From: an uncultured Pseudomonadales bacterium
Lineage (GTDB): Bacteria > Patescibacteriota > Microgenomatia > UBA1400 > Chazhemtobacteraceae
NCBI GenBank assembly: GCA_964422035.1
Contig: CAYQZQ010000001.1
Span: forward strand, 651,786-715,785
DNA: 64,000 bases
Reading direction: 5' to 3'
Part shown: piece by piece, positions 737 through 12,903 of the stretch
How the letters are laid out: the number at the start of each line of letters is the position of its first letter
Numbering within the stretch: position 1 is the first letter of the stretch
Notes under the pieces: model-generated
Database searches by the model: none
What the model was told of the DNA's origin: nothing
Seen by the model: the letters and a program-made list of their open reading frames with translations, nothing else
Position numbers and translations under genes: made by a program

Positions 737-2965
737 ATGGCAGAAGGTGAACCAATTTCTGGGATCGGGCCAAGTAGTATAAGTCGTGGTCCTGGCCATA
801 AAATGGAGAAAATTTCTCAGCCAACCAGTCAGGCTGAAGTGCCTGATATTAGAATGCAAAGAGATGAAGAAGAGGAGGTTGTTAGTGGTCGGGAAAAGCT
901 TGACGAGGAAAGAGAGATGTGGGAAGAGTTTGAAGAGGGTTATGGGAATAGAAATGAGATGAGGATGCCGGTAGTAACAGTTGAATTGGAAAAACCTGCT
1001 GAGGAGTTTAGTGCAAAAAAGTTTAAAAGGGCAGTACAAAAGGAGTTTTCATCTTGGGTAGATGGCTTAATTGCTAAAACTGGATCGGGGATGTCTGACA
1101 GGCCGGATCATATTAGATTAGGAAGGATGATGGATAGTATGAAAAATGCAGTTGATAGTTTAGAGATAAGAAGAAGCTTGGCAGAAGAGGGAGAGAAGGA
1201 AGTAGTAAGAAAACAGGAAAGTTTTGAAGAGATAAAGAAGAGGTTAATGAAAGAAGAAAAATTTACAGAAGAAGATTTTGAAGAAATGGGGAGAGGAGAG
1301 ATATTAAAAGTAACAAGAGCGAAGAAAGAGATGAAAGAGATTGAGTTTGGTGATAAAGAAAAGGAAAAACTGGAAGCGATTGAGGAAGCCTTGGAGTGGT
1401 CGGGAGCTATGGATGAGTTTATGTGGGGAGTTTATACTCATTGGGGGAGTTTAGGATGGTCAAGAGAATACTGGGCCAATGTCATCATGAATAGAGACAA
1501 AAGAGTGGTTAGATTGAAAGAGTTGTCCAAAATCAGAGAGATAGGACCGGTTAAGGAGGGTGAAATGCCAGTTGAGGAGTATTGGGACAAGGCGCAAAGA
1601 ATGATTATTGCAACAGCTTTGGTATCGATGGAGGCTGGTGAATCGGAAAATGAGAATATCCAAAAAGATTATGAGGTGGTTCCAAAAGATGTGGTGAAGT
1701 TGATAGGAGATGTTTTGACTGAAGAAGTGTCAGATTACTCGATAGACGAAGATTCCGGTGAAGAATCTGTGAAAGCGACACGCACAGTATTGAATATATT
1801 AAATATTGATCCAAAAAGTGATTTATTTGGCAAGACAAGTAAATTTATAAAAGCTTGTAGCTGGGTTGATGCGTGGGGCAGACTGAAAGAAGGAGGTAAA
1901 TACGAAGAAGTTAAAAGCGAAGTTGGTGATTGGATGAGTAAGATGGAGAAGGCGGAGAAAAGCGGTGAAGTGTCTTTTGGTTTGGATTTTGCGTTTAAGT
2001 TAGCTTTGGCTGACATTCATTTTGCAGGAATTGATACTAAATATGGGTGGAGCATGAAAGAAGAGATGAAATTAAAGAAGGAAGAGGGTGGAGATTGGAA
2101 GGTAAAAATAGGTAAAGATTGGAAAAAAACTGGAGAAGTAAAAGAAGGAGAGCAATTGTTTAAGAAAAAATATGATATGGGAGGATGGCCACAAGGAAAT
2201 GATGCCAATTATTTGGTGTGGTCAGGAGCAAGATTGAAAGAGGATGGGGGTCGTGACTGGCCGATAGGGCCTAATGTTCTTATGAGTGAAGAGGATGTTG
2301 AAAGAGCGGATGATCCAAGGCTTGAGACTGTGTTTCCCAATGGAATGATTCCTAACTTTTATGAGAAAGTCAAGCTGATGGTGAAAGTGGGAGTAGAAAA
2401 TTTAGATGTAGAGGAGATGTCTGATCGAGTAAAATCTACACTGGAGAATATTGGGAACATTGGAGAAGAGAAAACTTTTTGGGAGTTGTGGTGGAGAGAA
2501 GAAAATAGACATTATCAATTACCTTGGACAGGAGAAAGTGAAAGAGAAATGAAGGTATTGAGGGTTCCAAGAGATAACGAGCATAGTAAATGGTATGTGA
2601 CCTTGTTAATGGCTAATAGAGTGTTTGAAGCAGCTATCAATGATGATGTTAGGGAATTTCAAGAGCTGGTGTCTGTTGATAAGATGAAAAAGTTGATTAA
2701 AAATGCTGATATTGCTTTTGGGGTTGGTTCTGATAAAGCAAAAAGAATGGTGGTGGGAGTTTTGGCAGCACAGTCTTTATTGTTTAGTGGTTTATCGGAC
2801 CAACTGATTAGTAAAGATCAGAGAGAACAGGCTGTTAAGATGAAGGCAAAAAGCGATATAGGAAATAAGATCAGGTACTTATTAGATGAGGGCAAGCGAA
2901 GAGGGAAGTGGAGTAGTTTATACAATCAAATTATTGAGGAGGGTAAGATTGTCTGGAGAGATTAA
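737..2965 (+). CDS. large acidic (Glu/Lys-rich) hypothetical protein, no TM segments
   Basis: Long uninterrupted ORF of 742 aa, divergent from the PrgI-like gene. No recognisable catalytic motif. Confidence 0.55.
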   Translation: MAEGEPISGIGPSSISRGPGHKMEKISQPTSQAEVPDIRMQRDEEEEVVSGREKLDEEREMWEEFEEGYGNRNEMRMPVVTVELEKPAEEFSAKKFKRAVQKEFSSWVDGLIAKTGSGMSDRPDHIRLGRMMDSMKNAVDSLEIRRSLAEEGEKEVVRKQESFEEIKKRLMKEEKFTEEDFEEMGRGEILKVTRAKKEMKEIEFGDKEKEKLEAIEEALEWSGAMDEFMWGVYTHWGSLGWSREYWANVIMNRDKRVVRLKELSKIREIGPVKEGEMPVEEYWDKAQRMIIATALVSMEAGESENENIQKDYEVVPKDVVKLIGDVLTEEVSDYSIDEDSGEESVKATRTVLNILNIDPKSDLFGKTSKFIKACSWVDAWGRLKEGGKYEEVKSEVGDWMSKMEKAEKSGEVSFGLDFAFKLALADIHFAGIDTKYGWSMKEEMKLKKEEGGDWKVKIGKDWKKTGEVKEGEQLFKKKYDMGGWPQGNDANYLVWSGARLKEDGGRDWPIGPNVLMSEEDVERADDPRLETVFPNGMIPNFYEKVKLMVKVGVENLDVEEMSDRVKSTLENIGNIGEEKTFWELWWREENRHYQLPWTGESEREMKVLRVPRDNEHSKWYVTLLMANRVFEAAINDDVREFQELVSVDKMKKLIKNADIAFGVGSDKAKRMVVGVLAAQSLLFSGLSDQLISKDQREQAVKMKAKSDIGNKIRYLLDEGKRRGKWSSLYNQIIEEGKIVWRD

Positions 2966-2986: not shown

Positions 2987-4684
2987 TTATGTGTTTGGTC
3001 TATTTCGACCTGTGGTGTTATCAATAAATTCATTGACAGTTGAGATGTTGGTTTCTTGACTTTGTATTTTTTTACCCATTTGTTTTATAAATTCTGGGGC
3101 ATTTGGATTTCTCATAACTGTGCCTAGTGAAGTTATTCCACGTCGAGTCATATCAAAGCTTGTTCCCAGTTCTCTTCCTAAATCAGAACCATATTTAAAT
3201 GGCTCTACTTGGAAGGCTTCCTTGATCATATCTACATATTTGGGAGCCATAAAGAGAAGTCCAAGACCTACTAGTGCTACCATGCCACTGGCACCAGCGC
3301 CTTGGTAGGGGAAAAGTACGGGAACACGAGGTGCGGCTGAAGCTTGCAGAAGCCCCTGTGTAATGTTTTCGTACTTAAAATAAAGAGGTTGAACCATGAA
3401 AAGATAGGAAAATAAGAGGAGAAATGATGTGGCTGGAAAAACAATAAGATTGGCAAAAGTGTTTCTTAGCCAGTTGCCGACTGAGTTGGAACCGGGAAAA
3501 ACGTTGCCAAGAAGGATAAGTGGGGCAAAGATCAGATTAATAATGACGGTTATATAGGCACCTATTAGTTTAAAGAATAGTTTTCCATAGGAAATTAATG
3601 TAGCGATTAGGAGAATGGCTCCGACTATTATAGTTGGGATACCACCAACGAAAATTATAGATAAGGCGTTTGCTACGCCCCAAAAGATGCCTGTAATACC
3701 TGCTGGGAGGCCGGTAATGGCTCCGATTGCACCTGGAATACCAGATACGAAGGCAATAAATGTGTTGAAAAATCCACTTAAAATAAGACCAGCCCGACCA
3801 GAAGCAACATTGGCAAGAATATTTCCATATTCAGCGACCGGTCCAGTTTGAATTACATTGAAAGTTTCGAGGGCGCTAAAGCCGAGGAAGAAAAGAAGCC
3901 AGACTAAATCAAACATAAGCCCGATTATGGCGTAAGAAAAGGTGATCAAAAATAGAGTGAATATTAGTTTAGGTAAAGCCTGTTGAATGTTGACTGATGT
4001 TTGAGGATTTATCTTGACGCGGAACATGATCATAAAACCATAAACGAGGAAAAGAAGAACAAAGATCATATAGGCAATATTTCGAAAAGCGCGCCAAATT
4101 GGCAAAAAGCCTTGTAAGCTGGAAAAACCGTATCCACCACTATTGTCCTCTTGAGCATATGAAGGTTGAACAATTTTATGTTTTGCCATGTTGTCTTTAA
4201 CGCTGGCGACGTATTGATAAGTTTGGGCGGGGGGGTTTTTGAAAGGAGAAGATACTAATTGACCTAAGCTGGAAAGGAGGCTGTTATTGGAAGTGGATTG
4301 GTTAACTGCTTGATTGGTGATGTCGATTGTTGCTAGAAGACTCAGAGGCTGGTTTTGCCCTTGTTTTTTTTCATTGAATTTTTTGAATAATTCATCAAAA
4401 ATTGCTTCTCCGGTTTTTTCTTGTTCGCCGATCATAAATTCTAAGGCGTGGAGAATGATGATGTCTCCGAAACCGGTGCCTTCGCCTGTGAATGTGTTGT
4501 TGGTCCCACATTTACCGGCATACCAAGTTTCAAGGTTCATGGTGTCTCCTTGTCTTTTTTCACAGAAATCGTAGAGAGCGTCGTTTAAGGCTTCATTATT
4601 CTTTGCAGCAGCGACAGGATGGGGGAGAAAGGCTGAGGATATGAAAATTAGAGTGGTAAAAAAGATAATGAATTTTTTGCTCAT
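2987..4684 (-). CDS. polytopic membrane protein with signal peptide, ~200 aa exported domain and Gly-rich TM bundle; VirB6/TrbL-like candidate
   Basis: Signal peptide MSKKFIIFFTTLIFISSAFLPHPVAAA, then at least 6 hydrophobic helices rich in G/A/I. The architecture and the pilus-gene neighbourhood support the call. Confidence 0.45.
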   Translation of the reverse strand: MSKKFIIFFTTLIFISSAFLPHPVAAAKNNEALNDALYDFCEKRQGDTMNLETWYAGKCGTNNTFTGEGTGFGDIIILHALEFMIGEQEKTGEAIFDELFKKFNEKKQGQNQPLSLLATIDITNQAVNQSTSNNSLLSSLGQLVSSPFKNPPAQTYQYVASVKDNMAKHKIVQPSYAQEDNSGGYGFSSLQGFLPIWRAFRNIAYMIFVLLFLVYGFMIMFRVKINPQTSVNIQQALPKLIFTLFLITFSYAIIGLMFDLVWLLFFLGFSALETFNVIQTGPVAEYGNILANVASGRAGLILSGFFNTFIAFVSGIPGAIGAITGLPAGITGIFWGVANALSIIFVGGIPTIIVGAILLIATLISYGKLFFKLIGAYITVIINLIFAPLILLGNVFPGSNSVGNWLRNTFANLIVFPATSFLLLFSYLFMVQPLYFKYENITQGLLQASAAPRVPVLFPYQGAGASGMVALVGLGLLFMAPKYVDMIKEAFQVEPFKYGSDLGRELGTSFDMTRRGITSLGTVMRNPNAPEFIKQMGKKIQSQETNISTVNEFIDNTTGRNRPNT

Positions 4685-4731: not shown

Positions 4732-7113
4732 TTAATTGCCGATGTAATTTAAGTTTTGGTCGTAGTTGTTGTTAAACCAGATGCCGTATTCACAGTAGTT
4801 TTGGTTTCCCAGGCGAGCGTAGCTGACGCCTTCCTTGCAGGCGGCGCTGTTAAAGCTTGTGATGGCGGCTCGCATAACAGCGTCACTGTAAGGTTTTTTT
4901 TGGCTGACATTTAGAGAAACCATTTTGGCTACGGCATAGGCGGAGTCAACCATGGAGCAGATATTGGTTTCTTGTGAAGAGTTGTGGCATTCATTGTAGG
5001 CGTTGCCGTAGTTGGCACCTCCTGACCAGATGTCTAGATTTTCAGCTGCAGGATTGGGGCATTTATTGGGGAGGAAGCAGTAGGGGTGTTCTGGGTCTCT
5101 TTGGTTTCTTTGAGAGACGGTCTCGCCAATTGAGCCGTCTTTGTTATGTAGGAACTGGAAAGGCCCCCAGGAGCCGCAGCCGTCTCCGGATGGAGCGCAA
5201 TAAGCTTCTGTTTGGCGGTCAAAGTTGTTGGAATATAAGTCGCCCACCTCAACGGTGGAGATGGCGGCGATTACTTTGGGTGAGATGCCAAAGCAGGCGG
5301 CAGCTTGTTGGAAAAGTTGCTTGGCTTGAGAGCTGAACTGGACAGGGTTTTGATAGACGTCTGCCCGAACTGAGAAAGGGGAAGTGTTTTTATATTGCGA
5401 ACAGGATTGGGCGACACCTTGAGAGCTGATGCGGGCATAAGGATCAGAGCAGTCTAAGGTTGAGTCTTGTTGACCGGATGGAATAAGCCACTGATTGCGA
5501 AGCTGGCATAGATCAACATGGGACTGACCGGCTTGTCTGGGGACAGGAGAGGAGTTGTCATTGGTGTTGGTGGTGGTGATGACGACTTCATCTTCTGAAT
5601 CAAAGAAAGAGATAGGAGCTTCGATGCGGGTGTCTTTCTGAGATGAAGGTGTGAAGCTGGGAGTAAATATTTGATAAAGAGAGGAGGAGTTTTGATTAAG
5701 AGAAGAAAGAGAGGTGTTGATGTTTGATTGGGCGGGGTTGTTGGCGATGACGATTGGTTTTCCGGTGACGGTTGCAAGACCTTTAATCTTCCAAGTGGAA
5801 GAGGTTCGTATGGCAATTGGAGTTGTAAGGGGAGTGAGGGTAGGTTTGATGTATCGATAGGAAATATGACGGGTAATTTGGACGGGAACGATGACTGTCT
5901 GGGAGAAAGAAGGGGCGAGGGCTAGGTGTTGAGGGTTGGTTAGAGGAGAGGGAAGATAGATGGCGTCAATGATGTTGTCACATTGGTTTCTATCAAATTC
6001 ACCTGAAGTGATCTGTTCTTGTAGTTGGGTAAGAAAACTGGGAATGGATTGTTGTTCTTGGGATTGGTTGATGAAGCGATCATTTGTAAGAGAGCCTTCC
6101 CGTTGGTTGTTGATCCATTGAGGAGAGTAGAGGTTGACTAGACCGGTTTGGGGGTTAGTTAAACCTTCATCTAAGGCAGCTAGGTAGGGTAGATTTTCGC
6201 CATAGACGGAAGAGATAAAGGAAAAGCTTTGGCTTAGTTGAGCTAAGTAGCCGCGGTAGTTGTCAAAGGGTAAAGGTAAGAGAGCATCGTAGGCAGCCTT
6301 GGTGTCAGGTTTGAGGGTGTTGTAGGCTTTGGTGTAATTGCAAAATCTTATCTCGATGTGTTTTTTGAAGAAGGGAATATTAAAGTCAATAGAGGGGTCA
6401 ACAACTAATAAACAACGAGATTGATTGGCTAGTTCTATGGCTAAACGTTTTATGTCTTTGGTTTGTTGATTGCCGTCTTTGTCAAAGTATTGGATTTGGT
6501 AGTTTTGATAGATCTCTTCTTCTCCACCAGGAAGTAAAGTTCTTATATCAGGATAGTCTTCGTTCTGGCGGATAAAGGCGGCTTTGGCTTTGGCTTGTTG
6601 CTGGAAGGTGGTAGTGCGCCAGTAGGTGCGATAGGCTTCTTTAGGGAGAGGTGAGTCGGTGGCAGGATAGTAGGTGTTGGGCTGGTCAAAAAGAGCTTGA
6701 AAAGGGTATATTTGGGCATTGCGGTCAGGAGAGGATTGATGAATGATTTGAGCGTTGGCTCCAAAACCACCTAGTTGGGCGCGGTCCATATTAGCGTAGA
6801 TTTCAGTGGTCAATTCACCGTTAGTTTGGTACTTGGTGCAATTGCCGTATTGGTCGGTTTCTACACAAGGCAGAGATGAGTAGGAGAGATTTAGGGGTTC
6901 TTTGTCACTTTCAAAGTTAACATTGACTTTGGGGCTGGAGGTACAGGTTAACTGATAATCATCGAGGTCTTGATGGATAAGATCGGTTTCGGTTTCGCAG
7001 TCTTCGGTGGGGCGGTAGGGATTTTGTCCGGCAGGACAAGGGGCAGCCAGAGTAGGAGAAGATAAAAGAAGGGTAAAAAAAAGTAGGGGTAGAATTTTAA
7101 GCAAACGCTTCAT
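4732..7113 (-). CDS. large secreted protein; C-terminal region lytic-transglycosylase-like (VirB1-like?)
   Basis: The likely start is the internal MKRLLKILPLLFFTLLLSSPTLAAP signal peptide at 7113, not 7338. The C-terminus carries AISTVE...GPFQF...GNAYNEC, resembling the SLT motifs ES / GLMQ / AYNAG. Confidence 0.45.
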   Translation of the reverse strand: MKRLLKILPLLFFTLLLSSPTLAAPCPAGQNPYRPTEDCETETDLIHQDLDDYQLTCTSSPKVNVNFESDKEPLNLSYSSLPCVETDQYGNCTKYQTNGELTTEIYANMDRAQLGGFGANAQIIHQSSPDRNAQIYPFQALFDQPNTYYPATDSPLPKEAYRTYWRTTTFQQQAKAKAAFIRQNEDYPDIRTLLPGGEEEIYQNYQIQYFDKDGNQQTKDIKRLAIELANQSRCLLVVDPSIDFNIPFFKKHIEIRFCNYTKAYNTLKPDTKAAYDALLPLPFDNYRGYLAQLSQSFSFISSVYGENLPYLAALDEGLTNPQTGLVNLYSPQWINNQREGSLTNDRFINQSQEQQSIPSFLTQLQEQITSGEFDRNQCDNIIDAIYLPSPLTNPQHLALAPSFSQTVIVPVQITRHISYRYIKPTLTPLTTPIAIRTSSTWKIKGLATVTGKPIVIANNPAQSNINTSLSSLNQNSSSLYQIFTPSFTPSSQKDTRIEAPISFFDSEDEVVITTTNTNDNSSPVPRQAGQSHVDLCQLRNQWLIPSGQQDSTLDCSDPYARISSQGVAQSCSQYKNTSPFSVRADVYQNPVQFSSQAKQLFQQAAACFGISPKVIAAISTVEVGDLYSNNFDRQTEAYCAPSGDGCGSWGPFQFLHNKDGSIGETVSQRNQRDPEHPYCFLPNKCPNPAAENLDIWSGGANYGNAYNECHNSSQETNICSMVDSAYAVAKMVSLNVSQKKPYSDAVMRAAITSFNSAACKEGVSYARLGNQNYCEYGIWFNNNYDQNLNYIGN

Positions 7114-7138
7114 GAGGATATTGTAGCAATAAGAAGGG

Positions 7139-7492
7139 TTATGGAGTGAGATTGATCTGGGTGACGGGAGCACCAGTGAACTGTTCGATAAGATAAAGGA
7201 CAAACCAAGCGAGAGCAAGACCGGCGATACCGATGATGGCGTAGGTGAGAGCTTTGTAAGCGCCTTGAACTTGTTTGGGGTCGTCGCCGGCCATGATAAG
7301 TCTGGCTCCGGCGAAGAGGATAACACCAAAGGCGACAAGAATGAGTAGGGGAGAAAGAATGCTGATGATGTTTAGAAGAACGCACTTGATGCCGGTGATG
7401 GTGGGAATGATTTCTCCGTCGACTTGTTGAGCGCATCCTTGATTAACCCACTGGTTGGCTTCAATTTTAGCGGCGTGTGCGGTTAGATTCAT
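7139..7492 (-). CDS. VirB2/TrbC-like pilin paralog 1 (two TM segments flanking a GDDPKQVQGAYKAL loop)
   Basis: About 110 aa, hydrophobic-loop-hydrophobic layout. The loop motif is related to paralogs 2-7. Confidence 0.6.
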   Translation of the reverse strand: MNLTAHAAKIEANQWVNQGCAQQVDGEIIPTITGIKCVLLNIISILSPLLILVAFGVILFAGARLIMAGDDPKQVQGAYKALTYAIIGIAGLALAWFVLYLIEQFTGAPVTQINLTP

Positions 7493-7515
7493 ATGTGTAA
7501 TTATAAACTAATAAC

Positions 7516-7550
7516 AAAAACCCTCTGGAGTAGAGGGTTTTTGCTTTATT
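7516..7550. terminator. bidirectional rho-independent terminator hairpin (AAAAACCCTCT-GGAGTA-AGAGGGTTTTT) flanked by T/A runs
   Basis: Perfect inverted repeat followed by a T-run on the plus strand and an A-run upstream. It lies between pilin paralogs 1 and 2. Confidence 0.6.
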
Positions 7551-7566
7551 TTTTGCTTTATGATGC

Positions 7567-7896
7567 TTATTTTAGGGAAGGAAGAGAAAGCTCGGAGATT
7601 GATTGACCGAAGAGGAAGGTGGTGATTAGGTTAATCAAAGCGTAAGCAGCAGCGATGACGATTAACCCAATGACTGCATTGGTAATTTTCTTTTGTGCTT
7701 CTTCAGTTTTGGCTTTATCGCCACCTGAAGTAATCCATTGAAAACCGCCCAGGATTAAAAAGATGAAAGCAGCTAGAGCACCGAGAACAATAGAGGCGTT
7801 AACCAAACCTTGAAGTAAGGTTCCGATATTGCTAATGGCGTAACTTGGTTCGGGGACTCCGACTGATTCGGCAAATGCTTTTTTGATTATTTGCAT
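7567..7896 (-). CDS. VirB2/TrbC-like pilin paralog 2
   Basis: Contains QWITSGGDKAKTEEAQKKITNAVIGLIVI between two hydrophobic helices. Confidence 0.65.
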   Translation of the reverse strand: MQIIKKAFAESVGVPEPSYAISNIGTLLQGLVNASIVLGALAAFIFLILGGFQWITSGGDKAKTEEAQKKITNAVIGLIVIAAAYALINLITTFLFGQSISELSLPSLK

Positions 7897-7957
7897 GTTG
7901 ATGTGTATTTAGTAATTGTTAATGAAATTATACTTAGCTTAAAAGATAACTGTCAAA

Positions 7958-8272
7958 TTAAGAAGTAGGTAGGGCTTGGTCTAGACCTAAGAAGTTTTTG
8001 ATAAGAACAAAAACTGCGTAAGAGGCGACGACGATGATAAGACCGGTTAAACCATTGGTAATTTGCTTTTGAGCTTGTTCAACTTTAGCTTTGTCTCCAC
8101 CTGAGGTAATCCACTGAAGGCCGCCTAAGATAAAGTAAATGAGGGCAGCCAGAGCGGCGATGATGATAAGGGCATTGATTAGGCTGCTGATTAGAGTACC
8201 TACGTCTTGAAAGGCGAAAAAGCCTTGAGTTTGGGTTTTAAGATTTGATTGCATATTAGAAGTTCCAGTCAA
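7958..8272 (-). CDS. VirB2/TrbC-like pilin paralog 3
   Basis: Contains LQWITSGGDKAKVEQAQKQITNGLTGLII. Confidence 0.65.
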   Translation of the reverse strand: MTGTSNMQSNLKTQTQGFFAFQDVGTLISSLINALIIIAALAALIYFILGGLQWITSGGDKAKVEQAQKQITNGLTGLIIVVASYAVFVLIKNFLGLDQALPTS

Positions 8273-8591
8273 TATTTAGTAAATCAATTTTTAAGAATTC
8301 ACTGATAAGGCTGACAATGGCAAAGGAGGCGACTAGAATGATAAGGCCGGTTAAAGCATTGGTAATTTGCTTTTGAGCTTGTTCAACTTTAGCCTTGTCT
8401 CCACCTGAAGTAATCCACTGGAGACCTCCTATAATAAAGTAGATTAGAAAGGCTAGGCCGCCGACGATGACTAGCGCTTTCCAGATTTGACCAATATAAA
8501 AGGCAAGGCCGGCTCCGGCCTGTGAGGGGGTAGTGAATTGGTTAAGGACAGGGTTTTTGATGGCGGCGTGTGTTTGGGGTACTATTTTCAT
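8256..8591 (-). CDS. VirB2/TrbC-like pilin paralog 4
   Basis: Contains LQWITSGGDKAKVEQAQKQITNALTGLII. Overlaps paralog 3 by 17 nt. Confidence 0.65.
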   Translation of the reverse strand: MKIVPQTHAAIKNPVLNQFTTPSQAGAGLAFYIGQIWKALVIVGGLAFLIYFIIGGLQWITSGGDKAKVEQAQKQITNALTGLIILVASFAIVSLISEFLKIDLLNIDWNF

Positions 8592-8941
8592 GAAAGGTCC
8601 AGTAATTTTAATGGTTCAAGGAGTTGAATGTCGAGAATGTTGCCGATGATGGCGATGGCAAAGTAGGCTACAAGGACGATGACAAGGCCGGTTAAACCAT
8701 TGGTAATCTGCTTTTGAGCTTGTTCAACTTTAGCTTTGTCTCCACCTGAGGTGATCCATTGAAGAGCTCCGATGAGGAAGTAGAGGATGAAGGCGAGTCC
8801 GGCGGTGACGGTAAGGAAACCTATTACTGTTGAAAATAAATTTTCAAAAAGGGCTGGGTCTTGAGGATCTTGCATGTATTTGCCGGGGCCGGTGATGTTA
8901 CCCAGGTCAATCTGGGCGTAGGCTTGGGGTATTATTTTCAT
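8588..8941 (-). CDS. VirB2/TrbC-like pilin paralog 5
   Basis: Contains LQWITSGGDKAKVEQAQKQITNGLTGLVI. ATGA overlap with paralog 4. Confidence 0.65.
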   Translation of the reverse strand: MKIIPQAYAQIDLGNITGPGKYMQDPQDPALFENLFSTVIGFLTVTAGLAFILYFLIGALQWITSGGDKAKVEQAQKQITNGLTGLVIVLVAYFAIAIIGNILDIQLLEPLKLLDLS

Positions 8942-8943
8942 GA

Positions 8944-9297
8944 TTAGTTAACGGTTTGTAATTGAGGGCTTAGGATGTAGGTGTAGCTGCCGAAAAGAAG
9001 TTTGCTGATTATGGCGGTGACGATAAAGACAGCTACCATGACAAGTAAACCAATGAGAGCATTGGTGATTTGTTGTTGGGCGGAGCGGACTTTGTCCTGA
9101 TCGCCAGCGGCGGTGATGATAGAGAAACCTCCTAAAAGCATTTGGATTAAAGCAAAGAGACCGGCGGCTACAAAGATAACTCTAATTAAAGTTGAGAGAA
9201 AGCTGCCAAGGTCGCTGGTTTCAGTAACGACTGAAGGAGGAGGGGTGAGTTTGCCGACAACATCTTTGGCATAAGTTTTTGAGATTAGACTTAACAT
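8944..9297 (-). CDS. VirB2/TrbC-like pilin paralog 6 (divergent loop AAGDQDKVRSAQQQITNALIGL)
   Basis: Same two-TM architecture. Confidence 0.6.
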   Translation of the reverse strand: MLSLISKTYAKDVVGKLTPPPSVVTETSDLGSFLSTLIRVIFVAAGLFALIQMLLGGFSIITAAGDQDKVRSAQQQITNALIGLLVMVAVFIVTAIISKLLFGSYTYILSPQLQTVN

Positions 9298-9298
9298 A

Positions 9299-9634
9299 TT
9301 AAAAGATTGGCAAACCGCCGACGTTAAATAATATTCGAGTTATCCAGAAAGCGATAACTGCCAGGGCTAGCCCTAGTAAGGAAAATAGTAACATATTAGA
9401 AGCTTTTTGTGTTTCTTTGGGGTTGCCCCCAGCGATTATGTAACGGAAACCGGCTATAAGAGAGGAGATGAAAGCAGCAAGACCGGCTACAATGGTGATG
9501 TTTTGAATAATGGGGCTTAAGATACTGGAAAAAGTTGGGTTACTACCTAAAGATTTGCTGGGAGTAAAGGCGTCACCTAGATCAGTGGCAGCGTAAACTA
9601 GCGGTGCGGTCAAAAGTTTGCCTGTGAGTTTCAT
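9299..9634 (-). CDS. VirB2/TrbC-like pilin paralog 7 (loop AGGNPKETQKASNML)
   Basis: Same two-TM architecture. It is the first gene of the minus-strand array. Confidence 0.6.
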   Translation of the reverse strand: MKLTGKLLTAPLVYAATDLGDAFTPSKSLGSNPTFSSILSPIIQNITIVAGLAAFISSLIAGFRYIIAGGNPKETQKASNMLLFSLLGLALAVIAFWITRILFNVGGLPIF

Positions 9635-9670
9635 GTAAACAAATTATAACAGGTAGGTATAATAAAGGCC

Positions 9671-10741
9671 ATGAAGGCTATAAATAAGCTACAGAATTTT
9701 AAGATAAGGTTTGACAAGATCTTGCAAGAAGAGATCTTGGAGTGGAGGAGAGAGGCGGTGAGGTTAGATGAGCGGTGGGAGCTATTTATGAAAGTACTGG
9801 AAGAGTTTGTAGTTAGGGGCGGGAAAAGGATAAGGCCGGCGTTTTTATACTATTCATATTTGGCTTGTGGAGGAGAAGAGGCGGAGAAAGCAATGAGAGC
9901 AGGGGTAAGTCTGGAGCTTTTGCATGCGTTTTTGTTGATTCACGATGATATGATAGATAATTCTGATTTAAGACGAGGGGGTCCGACTGTTCACAAGGTT
10001 TTTGAGGAGGAGCACAAGAAAATGTCTTTGGAAGGAAATAGTGAGGAGTTTGGTAGATCAACGGCAATGATTTTAGGAGACGTGGTGCAGATGCTAGCAA
10101 GAAAACAGTTGCGCAAGGTGGACTTGAGGGAAGATATGTATAGAGAAAGCGAGAAAATAATGGAAGATCTTTTATGGGAGACGGCGTATGGTTGGTATAT
10201 TGAGATGTTGAATGCAAAAACCAGAGTGATTGAAGAGAAAGATGTTAAAAGATCGATGGAGTATGTTTCAGCTAGATATACAGTGTCAGGGCCGGTGAAG
10301 ATGGGAGCGATGTTGGCAGAAGCTGAAGTAGGAAAAATTAAGGCACTGGAGGAGTATGGACTGAATTTGGGTTTGGCTTTTCAGATTCAGGATGATGTTT
10401 TGGGGATGTTTGGAGATGAAGCAAAGGTGGGCAAGCCGGTGGAAAGTGATTTGAAAGAGGGAAAAAAGACGCTTTTGATTTTAAGAACACTTGACAAGCT
10501 TGAAGATGAAGAAACTAAGAATAAGCTGATGAGTATATATGGAAACAGTGAGGCAACAAGGCAGGATTTGGTTTGGGTGAGAGATTTAATAAAGAGTGAA
10601 GGTGTTTTGGAGGAGGTAAAAGGGGAGGCAAGAGGGTTGGCTGAGAAAGCGAAAAAGGAGTTAAAAAGCTTAGATTGGGATGAGAAAGGAGAGGGGTTTC
10701 TATTGGGTATAGCTTCATATATAGTAGAAAGACAAGTATGA
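9671..10741 (+). CDS. trans-isoprenyl diphosphate (polyprenyl) synthase
   Basis: FARM motif LIHDDMIDNSDLRRG and SARM motif FQIQDDVLG...GK. Confidence 0.85.
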   Translation: MKAINKLQNFKIRFDKILQEEILEWRREAVRLDERWELFMKVLEEFVVRGGKRIRPAFLYYSYLACGGEEAEKAMRAGVSLELLHAFLLIHDDMIDNSDLRRGGPTVHKVFEEEHKKMSLEGNSEEFGRSTAMILGDVVQMLARKQLRKVDLREDMYRESEKIMEDLLWETAYGWYIEMLNAKTRVIEEKDVKRSMEYVSARYTVSGPVKMGAMLAEAEVGKIKALEEYGLNLGLAFQIQDDVLGMFGDEAKVGKPVESDLKEGKKTLLILRTLDKLEDEETKNKLMSIYGNSEATRQDLVWVRDLIKSEGVLEEVKGEARGLAEKAKKELKSLDWDEKGEGFLLGIASYIVERQV

Positions 10742-12023: not shown

Positions 12024-12353
12024 TTAAAATGGAAGAATTGAAGAATCGTAGTTTAGCATAGAAGTGATAATTTTAACAATTAAAAATGAGGCTAAGACAA
12101 TAACAAGTCCGATAAAACCATTTAGGAGGCGGGTGTTGGTTTTGCTGAGAGACTCCGGGTCATCGCCGCCGAATATGTAGCCAAAAGAAGTGATGATTAG
12201 ATTAATAAAGAAGATAAAAGCGATGATGAAGAAAGCAACATCTAAAAGGTTGAAGCCGCCGGAGGTGATTAATTGGGTAATAGTGGGGTTGTTGGAGGAG
12301 AACTTAGTAGCGGGGTTGTAGAGGTTTGATATGTCTACTTGAGCTAGTTGCAT
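12024..12353 (-). CDS. VirB2/TrbC-like pilin paralog 8 (loop GGDDPESLSKTNTRLLNGFIGL)
   Basis: Two TM segments plus a GGDDP loop, as in paralog 1. Confidence 0.55.
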   Translation of the reverse strand: MQLAQVDISNLYNPATKFSSNNPTITQLITSGGFNLLDVAFFIIAFIFFINLIITSFGYIFGGDDPESLSKTNTRLLNGFIGLVIVLASFLIVKIITSMLNYDSSILPF

Positions 12354-12357
12354 GGGT

Positions 12358-12903
12358 CTATTGTAAACCAGGTAGGCCTAGAATGTTAATACCGATTATA
12401 TTCATGAGTATAGTGGAGAAGATTATGAAAATGAGTCCGGCGATGGCGGAGGTGATAACCTCTTTGCCGGCGTTGACTTTGTCAGGAATGCCGCCGGAAG
12501 TGGTGATTAAAAATAAACCATAGACAATAAGAATTAAAGCGATGGCCCCACCGATGCCGATACCTAAGGTGAGAATGTTTTTGATAAAACCGTCTCCTTG
12601 TAGATTGGTGGGAATGCAGCCTAAGGCTGTGTTGATTCCTTGGTTACCATTACACTGAAGATTGTTGACATCAGAAGATCCTTTAAGGTTTTTGTTTTTT
12701 TGGTCTCTGGTGTTTTCGCAAGCTTCGAGTGAGGAGTAGACGGAGTCGCCGCTGTTGAGATTGGTTTCTTGGCAACTGCAGCCGTAACTAGTACAGTGAA
12801 GAATGTAGTTTTGGGAGCTCTGGGCTTTGGCAGGTAAAGAAGTGAGGAGAGAGAAGGATAGAAGAGCGGTAAAGATAATAATAATTTTAGTTTTCATAAG
12901 CAA
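12358..12903 (-). CDS. pilin-like protein with N-terminal Cys-rich secreted domain (paralog 9)
   Basis: Classic signal peptide, an ~90 aa domain with 8 Cys, then the TM-ITTSGGIPDKVNAGKEVITSAIAGL-TM module. Confidence 0.55.
   Translation of the reverse strand: MLMKTKIIIIFTALLSFSLLTSLPAKAQSSQNYILHCTSYGCSCQETNLNSGDSVYSSLEACENTRDQKNKNLKGSSDVNNLQCNGNQGINTALGCIPTNLQGDGFIKNILTLGIGIGGAIALILIVYGLFLITTSGGIPDKVNAGKEVITSAIAGLIFIIFSTILMNIIGINILGLPGLQ

Follow-up and report, generated by a model that had tools for sequence, protein, structure and literature searches.

Probable gene conversion of a short hairpin-tip segment among three tandem VirB2-like pilin genes of a Patescibacteria genome

Three adjacent members (p3, p4 and p5) of an old tandem array of VirB2-like pilin genes carry segments that are nearly identical at the DNA level, and these segments most probably arose by recurrent, non-reciprocal homologous recombination over short tracts, that is, by interlocus gene conversion. 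Within the window, the 64,000-nucleotide stretch of DNA that we analyzed, overwriting between copies was confined to the approximately 81–90 nt that encode the tip of the pilin hairpin, and this homogenization went on after the lineage of the window had left its closest sampled relatives. Gene conversion between tandem copies is a textbook process, and the locus is a new, well-supported example of that known process (concerted evolution by gene conversion) in a known kind of array, with no new mechanism involved.

Organization of the pilin gene array

The array comprises seven tandem VirB2-like pilin genes, p1 to p7, that lie back to back on the minus strand at 7139–9634 of the window (Table 1), and all seven (7/7) are complete open reading frames with start and stop codons. 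When compared with the Pfam family PF18895 (T4SS_pilin), whose curated cut-off is 26.6 bits, p1–p5 scored above the threshold (27.5–43.5 bits) and p6 and p7 just below it. The name "pilin", used in the preliminary description, is thus correct in the sense of a VirB2-like T4SS pilin (PF18895) and not of a type IV pilus pilin. In addition, p4 gave a sub-threshold match to NCBIfam NF045849 ("Mbov_0395 family pilin-like conjugal transfer protein", from mycoplasma ICEs), with 29.3 bits against a cut-off of 40 and an E-value of 4.9e-7, which fits the published link between the T4SS of Patescibacteria and monoderm conjugation systems. The nearest genomes found are MAGs of the Microgenomates group and of other Patescibacteria.

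Table 1. Genes of the pilin array and the shared core in the window.
Feature	Position	Strand	Length	PF18895 score (bits)	Remark
p7	9299–9634	-	111 aa	24.2	first gene of the array
p6	8944–9297	-	117 aa	24.5	pilin paralog
p5	8588–8941	-	117 aa	27.5	pilin paralog, probable conversion acceptor
p4	8256–8591	-	111 aa	33.9	pilin paralog, probable donor type
p3	7958–8254	-	98 aa	37.5	pilin paralog; length counted from the ATG at 8254
p2	7567–7896	-	109 aa	43.5	pilin paralog
p1	7139–7492	-	117 aa	36.9	last and most divergent pilin paralog
Homogenized core in p3	8039–8119	-	81 nt
Homogenized core in p4	8343–8423	-	81 nt		encodes residues 57–83
Homogenized core in p5	8684–8764	-	81 nt		77/81 identical to p3, 74/81 to p4

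To collect the arrays of relatives, designated here by L numbers, we scanned genome and metagenome collections and then looked up the contigs. Complete or near-complete arrays were available from L001, L002, L009, L012, L029 and L035, and shorter pieces from L011, L025, L026, L028, L031 and L032. These relatives are metagenomic contigs from mixed populations, and some of the differences among them may be strain mixtures.

Extent and protein position of the shared core

On the minus strand and in codon register, the core consists of 27 codons encoding LQWITSGGDKAKVEQAQKQITN[G/A]LTGL. Its pairwise identity among p3, p4 and p5 is 76/81, 77/81 and 74/81 (91–95%), and the longest exact runs in the three pairs measure 37, 44 and 26 nt. 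Identity drops to just 42–67% in the 45 nt to either side of the core, 46–53% of the aligned bases differ over the coding sequence outside it, and amino-acid identity in these flanks is 28–39%. A BLAST comparison of the region against itself returned alignments of 90 nt (94.4% identity) for p3/p5 and of 116 nt (89.7%) for p3/p4. The copies stand in direct orientation, 304 and 341 bp apart, and a degenerate 52-mer motif for the core has three exact matches in the 64-kb window (8065–8116, 8369–8420 and 8710–8761), with none expected from 100 shuffles. The preliminary description had placed a near-identical segment of about 65 nt in paralogs 3, 4 and 5 (8058–8120, 8361–8420 and 8702–8765), within coding sequence that had otherwise diverged strongly; both the sharing and the divergence of the flanks are confirmed by these figures, while the length has to be corrected to 81 nt.

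The near-identical set is limited to these three genes. In p6 the corresponding sequence is 54–57% identical to the cores of p3–p5. The homologous segment of p2 (7663–7743) is only 74–75% identical to them and falls outside the set, and its third-position matches are not significantly clustered (P 0.17; see below for the method).

An AlphaFold2 model of p4, based on 33 homologs, predicts a helical hairpin with helices at residues 22–61 and 66–100 joined by a loop at 62–65, and with a pLDDT of about 95 over residues 40–90. In this model, the core starts in the final turn of helix 1, spans the SGGD loop and takes in the first 18 residues of helix 2, and hence it encodes the predicted helix-loop-helix tip of the hairpin. 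Residues G55, G64, D65, A72, I76, G82 and L83, which are nearly invariant, lie in or beside the core, the most conserved part of the family. A Foldseek search of the PDB with the p4 model gave no match with E<1; the matches were non-specific helical hairpins, the third being the Aeropyrum pernix conjugation pilus 8dfu (E 1.7, probability 0.84). A profile search of PDB sequences with the pilin found nothing relevant.

Silent sites in the core and in the flanks

At positions where two paralogs encode the same amino acid, they also agree in the codon in 21/25, 22/26 and 19/25 cases within the core, compared with 9.6–9.9 expected from the codon usage of the window (binomial P 4e-6, 1.5e-6 and 1.5e-4). 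In the flanks, the corresponding counts are 12/26, 8/18 and 12/26, which do not exceed expectation, and Fisher tests of core against flank yielded P values of 0.005, 0.006 and 0.028. The dS between paralogs, estimated with the Nei-Gojobori method (NG86), is 0.26, 0.26 and 0.43 in the core, imprecise values that rest on about 19 synonymous sites, versus 1.3–2.2 (saturated) in the flanks. The check proposed in the preliminary description, namely whether synonymous divergence in the core is comparable to that of the flanks, thus has a clear outcome: it is not. Third-position matches are also clustered along the genes in all three pairs of the window (P 0.0005, 0.0015 and 0.0009), according to a home-made Sawyer-type permutation of third codon positions; in most control pairs from other genomes, the clustering was not significant.

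One way to obtain similar DNA without any exchange would be purifying selection on the most conserved part of the protein combined with codon bias, such that preferred codons make the copies alike. The strong conservation of the core in the family, with its nearly invariant residues, is what this explanation requires, and the third-position identity of the core is indeed modestly higher in many paralog pairs. Nevertheless, it predicts about 38% same-codon use, against the 76–85% observed, and orthologs that encode the same amino acids use different codons. Moreover, the amino acids of the core are themselves lineage-specific and common to the paralogs: the window has KQ and DKAK, L035 has KH and DKTK/DKNK, and in the more distant L025/L035 strain p3 and p4 share KH. 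Codon bias cannot yield lineage-specific silent states that are common to paralogs, and for this reason we regard the explanation as very unlikely.

Concerted change in close relatives

The core and its flanks give opposite pictures of relatedness. Core nucleotide identity is 91–95% among the paralogs of the window, 83–86% to the orthologs in L026 and L032, and 63–72% to those in L009, whereas the flanks encoding the transmembrane (TM) helices are 48–57% identical among the paralogs of the window and 85% identical to their orthologs. The clearest case is L026, an independent ENA assembly in which the array is about 87% identical to that of the window and the core encodes the same amino acids. 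Six synonymous states (TCC, GCC, GTC, ATC, AAC and ACT) are common to its p3 and p4 at codons where p3, p4 and p5 of the window all carry TCA, GCT, GTT, ATT, AAT and ACC. The dS between the window and L026 orthologs is 1.18 (p3) and 1.21 (p4) in the core, compared with 0.56 and 0.31 in the flanks, and between p3 and p4 within L026 the core dS is 0.29 (5/69 differences). The same holds for p5, whose core in the window is 95% identical to that of p3 of the same genome and 85% identical to that of p5 in L032 (dS 0.97), with the TM helices of the two p5 genes 85% identical.

Traces of exchange are visible in other arrays as well. The p5 core of L035 is a mosaic, in which a p5-type middle (QQDKLQKA, as in p5 of L009 and L029) is bordered by p4-type ends (FQWITSAG and ITNGLTGL); the NGLTGL ending recurs in p4 of L009 and L029 and, in variant form, in p4 of L028 and L031. 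In L012, p4 and p3 (5169–5226 versus 5492–5550) share 59 nt at 91.5% in the same hairpin-tip position as the core of the window, and in L009, p5 and p4 (4775–4842 versus 5119–5186) share a 68-nt patch at 85% at the end of helix 1, with clustered third-position matches (P 0.0002). These are independent patches, similar to that of the window but weaker, and they characterize the conversion as recurrent but episodic. Because the same core lacks significant clustering in most of the other sampled arrays, homogenization is episodic and lineage-specific and is therefore not a general property of these arrays.

These comparisons also bear on constraint at the nucleotide level, which the preliminary description had named as an alternative to gene conversion: an RNA structure, a regulatory site or another DNA or RNA element could forbid silent changes in the tract, and the silent sites are indeed nearly invariant among the three copies within the genome of the window. 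Between close orthologs, however, silent sites of this tract vary freely: the core dS values given above (1.18, 1.21 and 0.97) are at least as high as those of the flanks, and third-position matches between paralog cores in other genomes amount to 9–17/27. The cores do not fold more stably than shuffled sequences (z +1.56, -1.11 and +1.20 for the mRNA-sense cores and +0.78 for the antisense). An Rfam scan of the whole 64-kb window recognized only the tmRNA and six tRNAs and nothing in the array, and there are no inverted repeats in 7000–9700. Of the two possibilities first put forward, gene conversion is upheld by the dS values, the clustering, the trees described below and the shared silent states, while constraint, contradicted by an ortholog core dS of 1.0–1.2, is highly improbable.

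Age of the paralogs

Syntenic seven-gene arrays are present in L001, L002, L009, L012 and L035, and each of p2–p5 has a recognizable ortholog at the same array position in relatives; orthologs of p7 are syntenic in L009, L032 and L035. A neighbor-joining tree of the flanks (231 sites) groups all p4 sequences with 99% bootstrap support, all p5 sequences with 77%, p4 of the window and of L025 with 91%, and p3 of the window, L026 and L025 with 92%. In the tree of the core (81 sites), by contrast, p3, p4 and p5 of the window form a group with p3 of L026 at 63%, a moderate support from a tract of only 81 nt, and every ortholog grouping receives 0%. Since the flank trees group orthologs, the duplication is older than the split of the lineages, and, judged from these sequences, the seven paralogs predate the split of all sampled relatives.

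This age makes it extremely unlikely that p3, p4 and p5 are recent duplicates whose flanks then diverged very fast. Their tandem, adjacent arrangement would suit such an origin, but each of the three has its ortholog at the same position in distant relatives, with the flank groupings of 99%, 77% and 92% just mentioned, and the silent sites of the flanks are saturated, a state that positive selection on the protein would not explain. An assembly or polishing artefact that homogenized a short repeat in the genome of the window deserves as little credence: although short-read contigs of relatives often break at the cores (at the start of L026 and at the ends of L031 and L032), the three copies differ mutually at 4–7 positions, the independent assembly L026 shows the same similarity between its p3 and p4 cores with variants of its own, and four Logan assemblies from separate runs (L035–L038) encode the same p3 and p4 proteins, including the core.

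Proposed course of the conversion

Gene conversion therefore stands as the preferred explanation, and the relatives permit a tentative account of its course. Among the sampled relatives, no conversion event or intermediate was seen directly, and donor and direction are inferred from sequence comparison. From the few metagenomic relatives at hand, the donor would have been a p4-type sequence, transferred early to p3 and in a stepwise manner to p5, partly before the split of the L035 lineage and to completion after it, before the split of L032.

RecA-dependent recombination needs exact runs of a few tens of bases, which is about the minimum for efficient strand exchange. The family is most conserved at the hairpin tip, which is therefore the only place where diverged paralogs retain exact runs of that order, and the confinement of the tracts to the core may be explained in this way: protein conservation would keep runs of 26–44 nt, enough for strand exchange, in this stretch only. 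Once converted, a copy would have higher identity and later conversion would be easier, while flanks with a divergence of about 50% would stop the heteroduplex from extending. Selection would probably also act against conversion of the N- and C-terminal parts, in which paralog-specific sequence would be lost. As a net effect, the three pilins would be identical in their hairpin tip but differ in the regions around it.

The cores as sites of deletion, duplication or shuffling

It is plausible that the repeated cores provide homology for deletion and duplication within the array, and one candidate was found. L027 (ENA ERZ10759834), a 634-nt contig with a coverage of about 3, carries a hybrid gene of 109 aa at 103–432 that joins the N-terminal part of p4 to the C-terminal part of p3 (p4N::p3C) and is followed by p2 at normal spacing. 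The p3–p2 part is 96.6% identical to L026, the contig coming from a strain 3.4% diverged from it, and the switch from p4 to p3 lies within 224–356, a range that includes the core. The hybrid is either an unequal-crossover deletion across the p4 and p3 cores or an assembly chimera, since the L027/L026 strain contains an exact repeat of at least 55 nt that can mislead a de Bruijn assembler.

A further reading, which we consider unlikely although it merits mention, is that the core is more than a by-product of conversion and serves as a shared crossover point at which the N- and C-terminal halves of the pilins are shuffled and the copy number is changed, an event that the L027 fusion would illustrate. 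If this were true, an epibiotic bacterium would vary the parts of its pilus combinatorially while keeping constant the hairpin tip that fits the secretion machinery.

Short contigs that begin (L026, L028 and L030) or end (L031 and L032) in or beside a pilin core were a recurrent observation, and one to be expected if the cores act as repeats on which short-read assembly graphs break.

Comparison with known pilin systems

Two known types of pilin or target variation were considered and rejected. The copies do not resemble the target of a diversity-generating retroelement: nearly all of their differences are T/C and A/G transitions at third positions, silent and running in either direction, with one G/C replacement in addition, and they show no adenine-specific pattern. 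In Neisseria, silent, truncated pilS cassettes donate variable segments to pilE, the single expression locus of a type IV pilus pilin. The window has in common with that system gene conversion between pilin copies with short conserved segments, but here all seven genes are complete, and it is the conserved segment that is transferred, with the variable parts keeping their orthology.

A closer parallel is offered by the Trw T4SS of Bartonella, where both concerted evolution and diversifying selection have been reported for tandem copies of trwL (the VirB2-like major pilin) and trwJ (Nystedt et al. 2008, Mol Biol Evol 25:287, as cited in PMC3483213). As far as that description goes, both cases involve tandem paralogs of the VirB2 family in which recombination between copies homogenizes some of the sequence while other parts diversify. 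In contrast to Bartonella, a diderm alphaproteobacterial pathogen, the window belongs to Patescibacteria with a monoderm-like system, its paralogs are much older and far more diverged, and homogenization affects only one patch of about 81 nt in 3/7 genes.

Arrays of VirB2-like pilin genes in Patescibacteria have been surveyed, and the passages of that survey that deal with them report 441 arrays of 2–11 genes in 383 assemblies, most abundant in Microgenomatia and Saccharimonadia, with a within-array identity of 25% on average and 54% at most, and with one array essential in a cultivated epibiont (PMC12102498, Microb Genom 2025). The array of the window is a locus of this kind, with genes of this family. 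These passages describe variability within arrays and contain no mention of mosaic identity at the DNA level or of gene conversion. Relative to the identities they report, p3 and p4 of the window (55% overall) stand at the top of the range, an effect of the converted core.

Anaplasma phagocytophilum and A. marginale possess 8–15 tandem virB2 paralogs that encode two hydrophobic helices and in which diversity is concentrated in two hypervariable regions, close to the N- and C-termini, around a conserved middle (PMC3556328). These clusters resemble the array of the window in their conserved center and variable ends, but the conserved middle was not attributed to conversion between paralogs; furthermore, the copy number of virB2 differs between Anaplasma strains, whereas the array studied in the window keeps a stable seven genes across distant relatives.

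Three paralogs are thus kept identical at the hairpin tip while their other parts evolve independently. The identical tip suggests an interaction common to the three, whether with the assembly machinery or among the subunits of one filament, and the independently evolving ends suggest paralog-specific roles. Tandem VirB2-like arrays are widespread in Patescibacteria. In practical terms, conversion patches inflate the identity of paralogs, mislead phylogenies of short proteins and break short-read assemblies.

Other features of the locus

Among the large open reading frames tested in the 64-kb window, which is part of a 725-kb contig, Pfam and NCBIfam scans recognized no member of the VirB4, VirB6 or VirB1 families. 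Three large open reading frames lie beside the array, at 4732–7113 (minus strand, 793 aa), 2987–4684 (minus strand, 565 aa) and 737–2965 (plus strand, 742 aa), and none of the three has a match in Pfam or NCBIfam. Counterparts of the 793-aa and 565-aa frames come after the array in L001 and L002, and the 565-aa counterpart in L002 is a multi-pass membrane protein. The three frames are candidates for unrecognized parts of the secretion machinery.

Two more pilin-like genes are located at 12024–12353 and 12358–12897 on the minus strand, with T4SS_pilin scores of 24.0 and 29.5 bits, and the latter has a long Cys-rich N-terminal extension. The pair (12024–12897) lies 2.4 kb from the array, with genes for polyprenyl synthetase, NUDIX and undecaprenyl-diphosphate synthase proteins in between, and the same arrangement of pair and array occurs in L001, L009 and L032.

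Regulatory-type signals are associated with p2. A perfect sigma-70 consensus promoter, TTGACA-18-TATAAT (12/12), is situated at 7927–7956 on the minus strand, between the p3 stop and the p2 start, and a terminator with a 14-bp stem and a T-run (7513–7545) follows directly after the p2 stop. The TTGACA and a TATAAT-like box are kept in the window, L026, L027, L035, L009, L029, L028, L001, L002 and L012. The terminator stem is conserved too, with compensatory substitutions (CCCTCT/AGAGGG, CCCTCC/GGAGGG, CCTTCC/GGAAGG and CCCGCC/GGCGGG). From these signals, p2 may be a separately and strongly expressed major pilin.

A second small repeat joins the 5' ends of p4 and p5 (8565–8593 and 8915–8943; 29 nt at 86%) and consists of the start codon and a short leader, MKI[V/I]PQ[T/A][H/Y]A. 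Many of the paralogs open with a short leader whose end is AxA-Q; in some, a full signal peptide takes its place. In L001, a repeat of 38–51 nt with 88–95% identity stands directly upstream of three separate pilin genes (3465–3503, 4928–4966 and 7074–7111) and may be a shared promoter or leader element.
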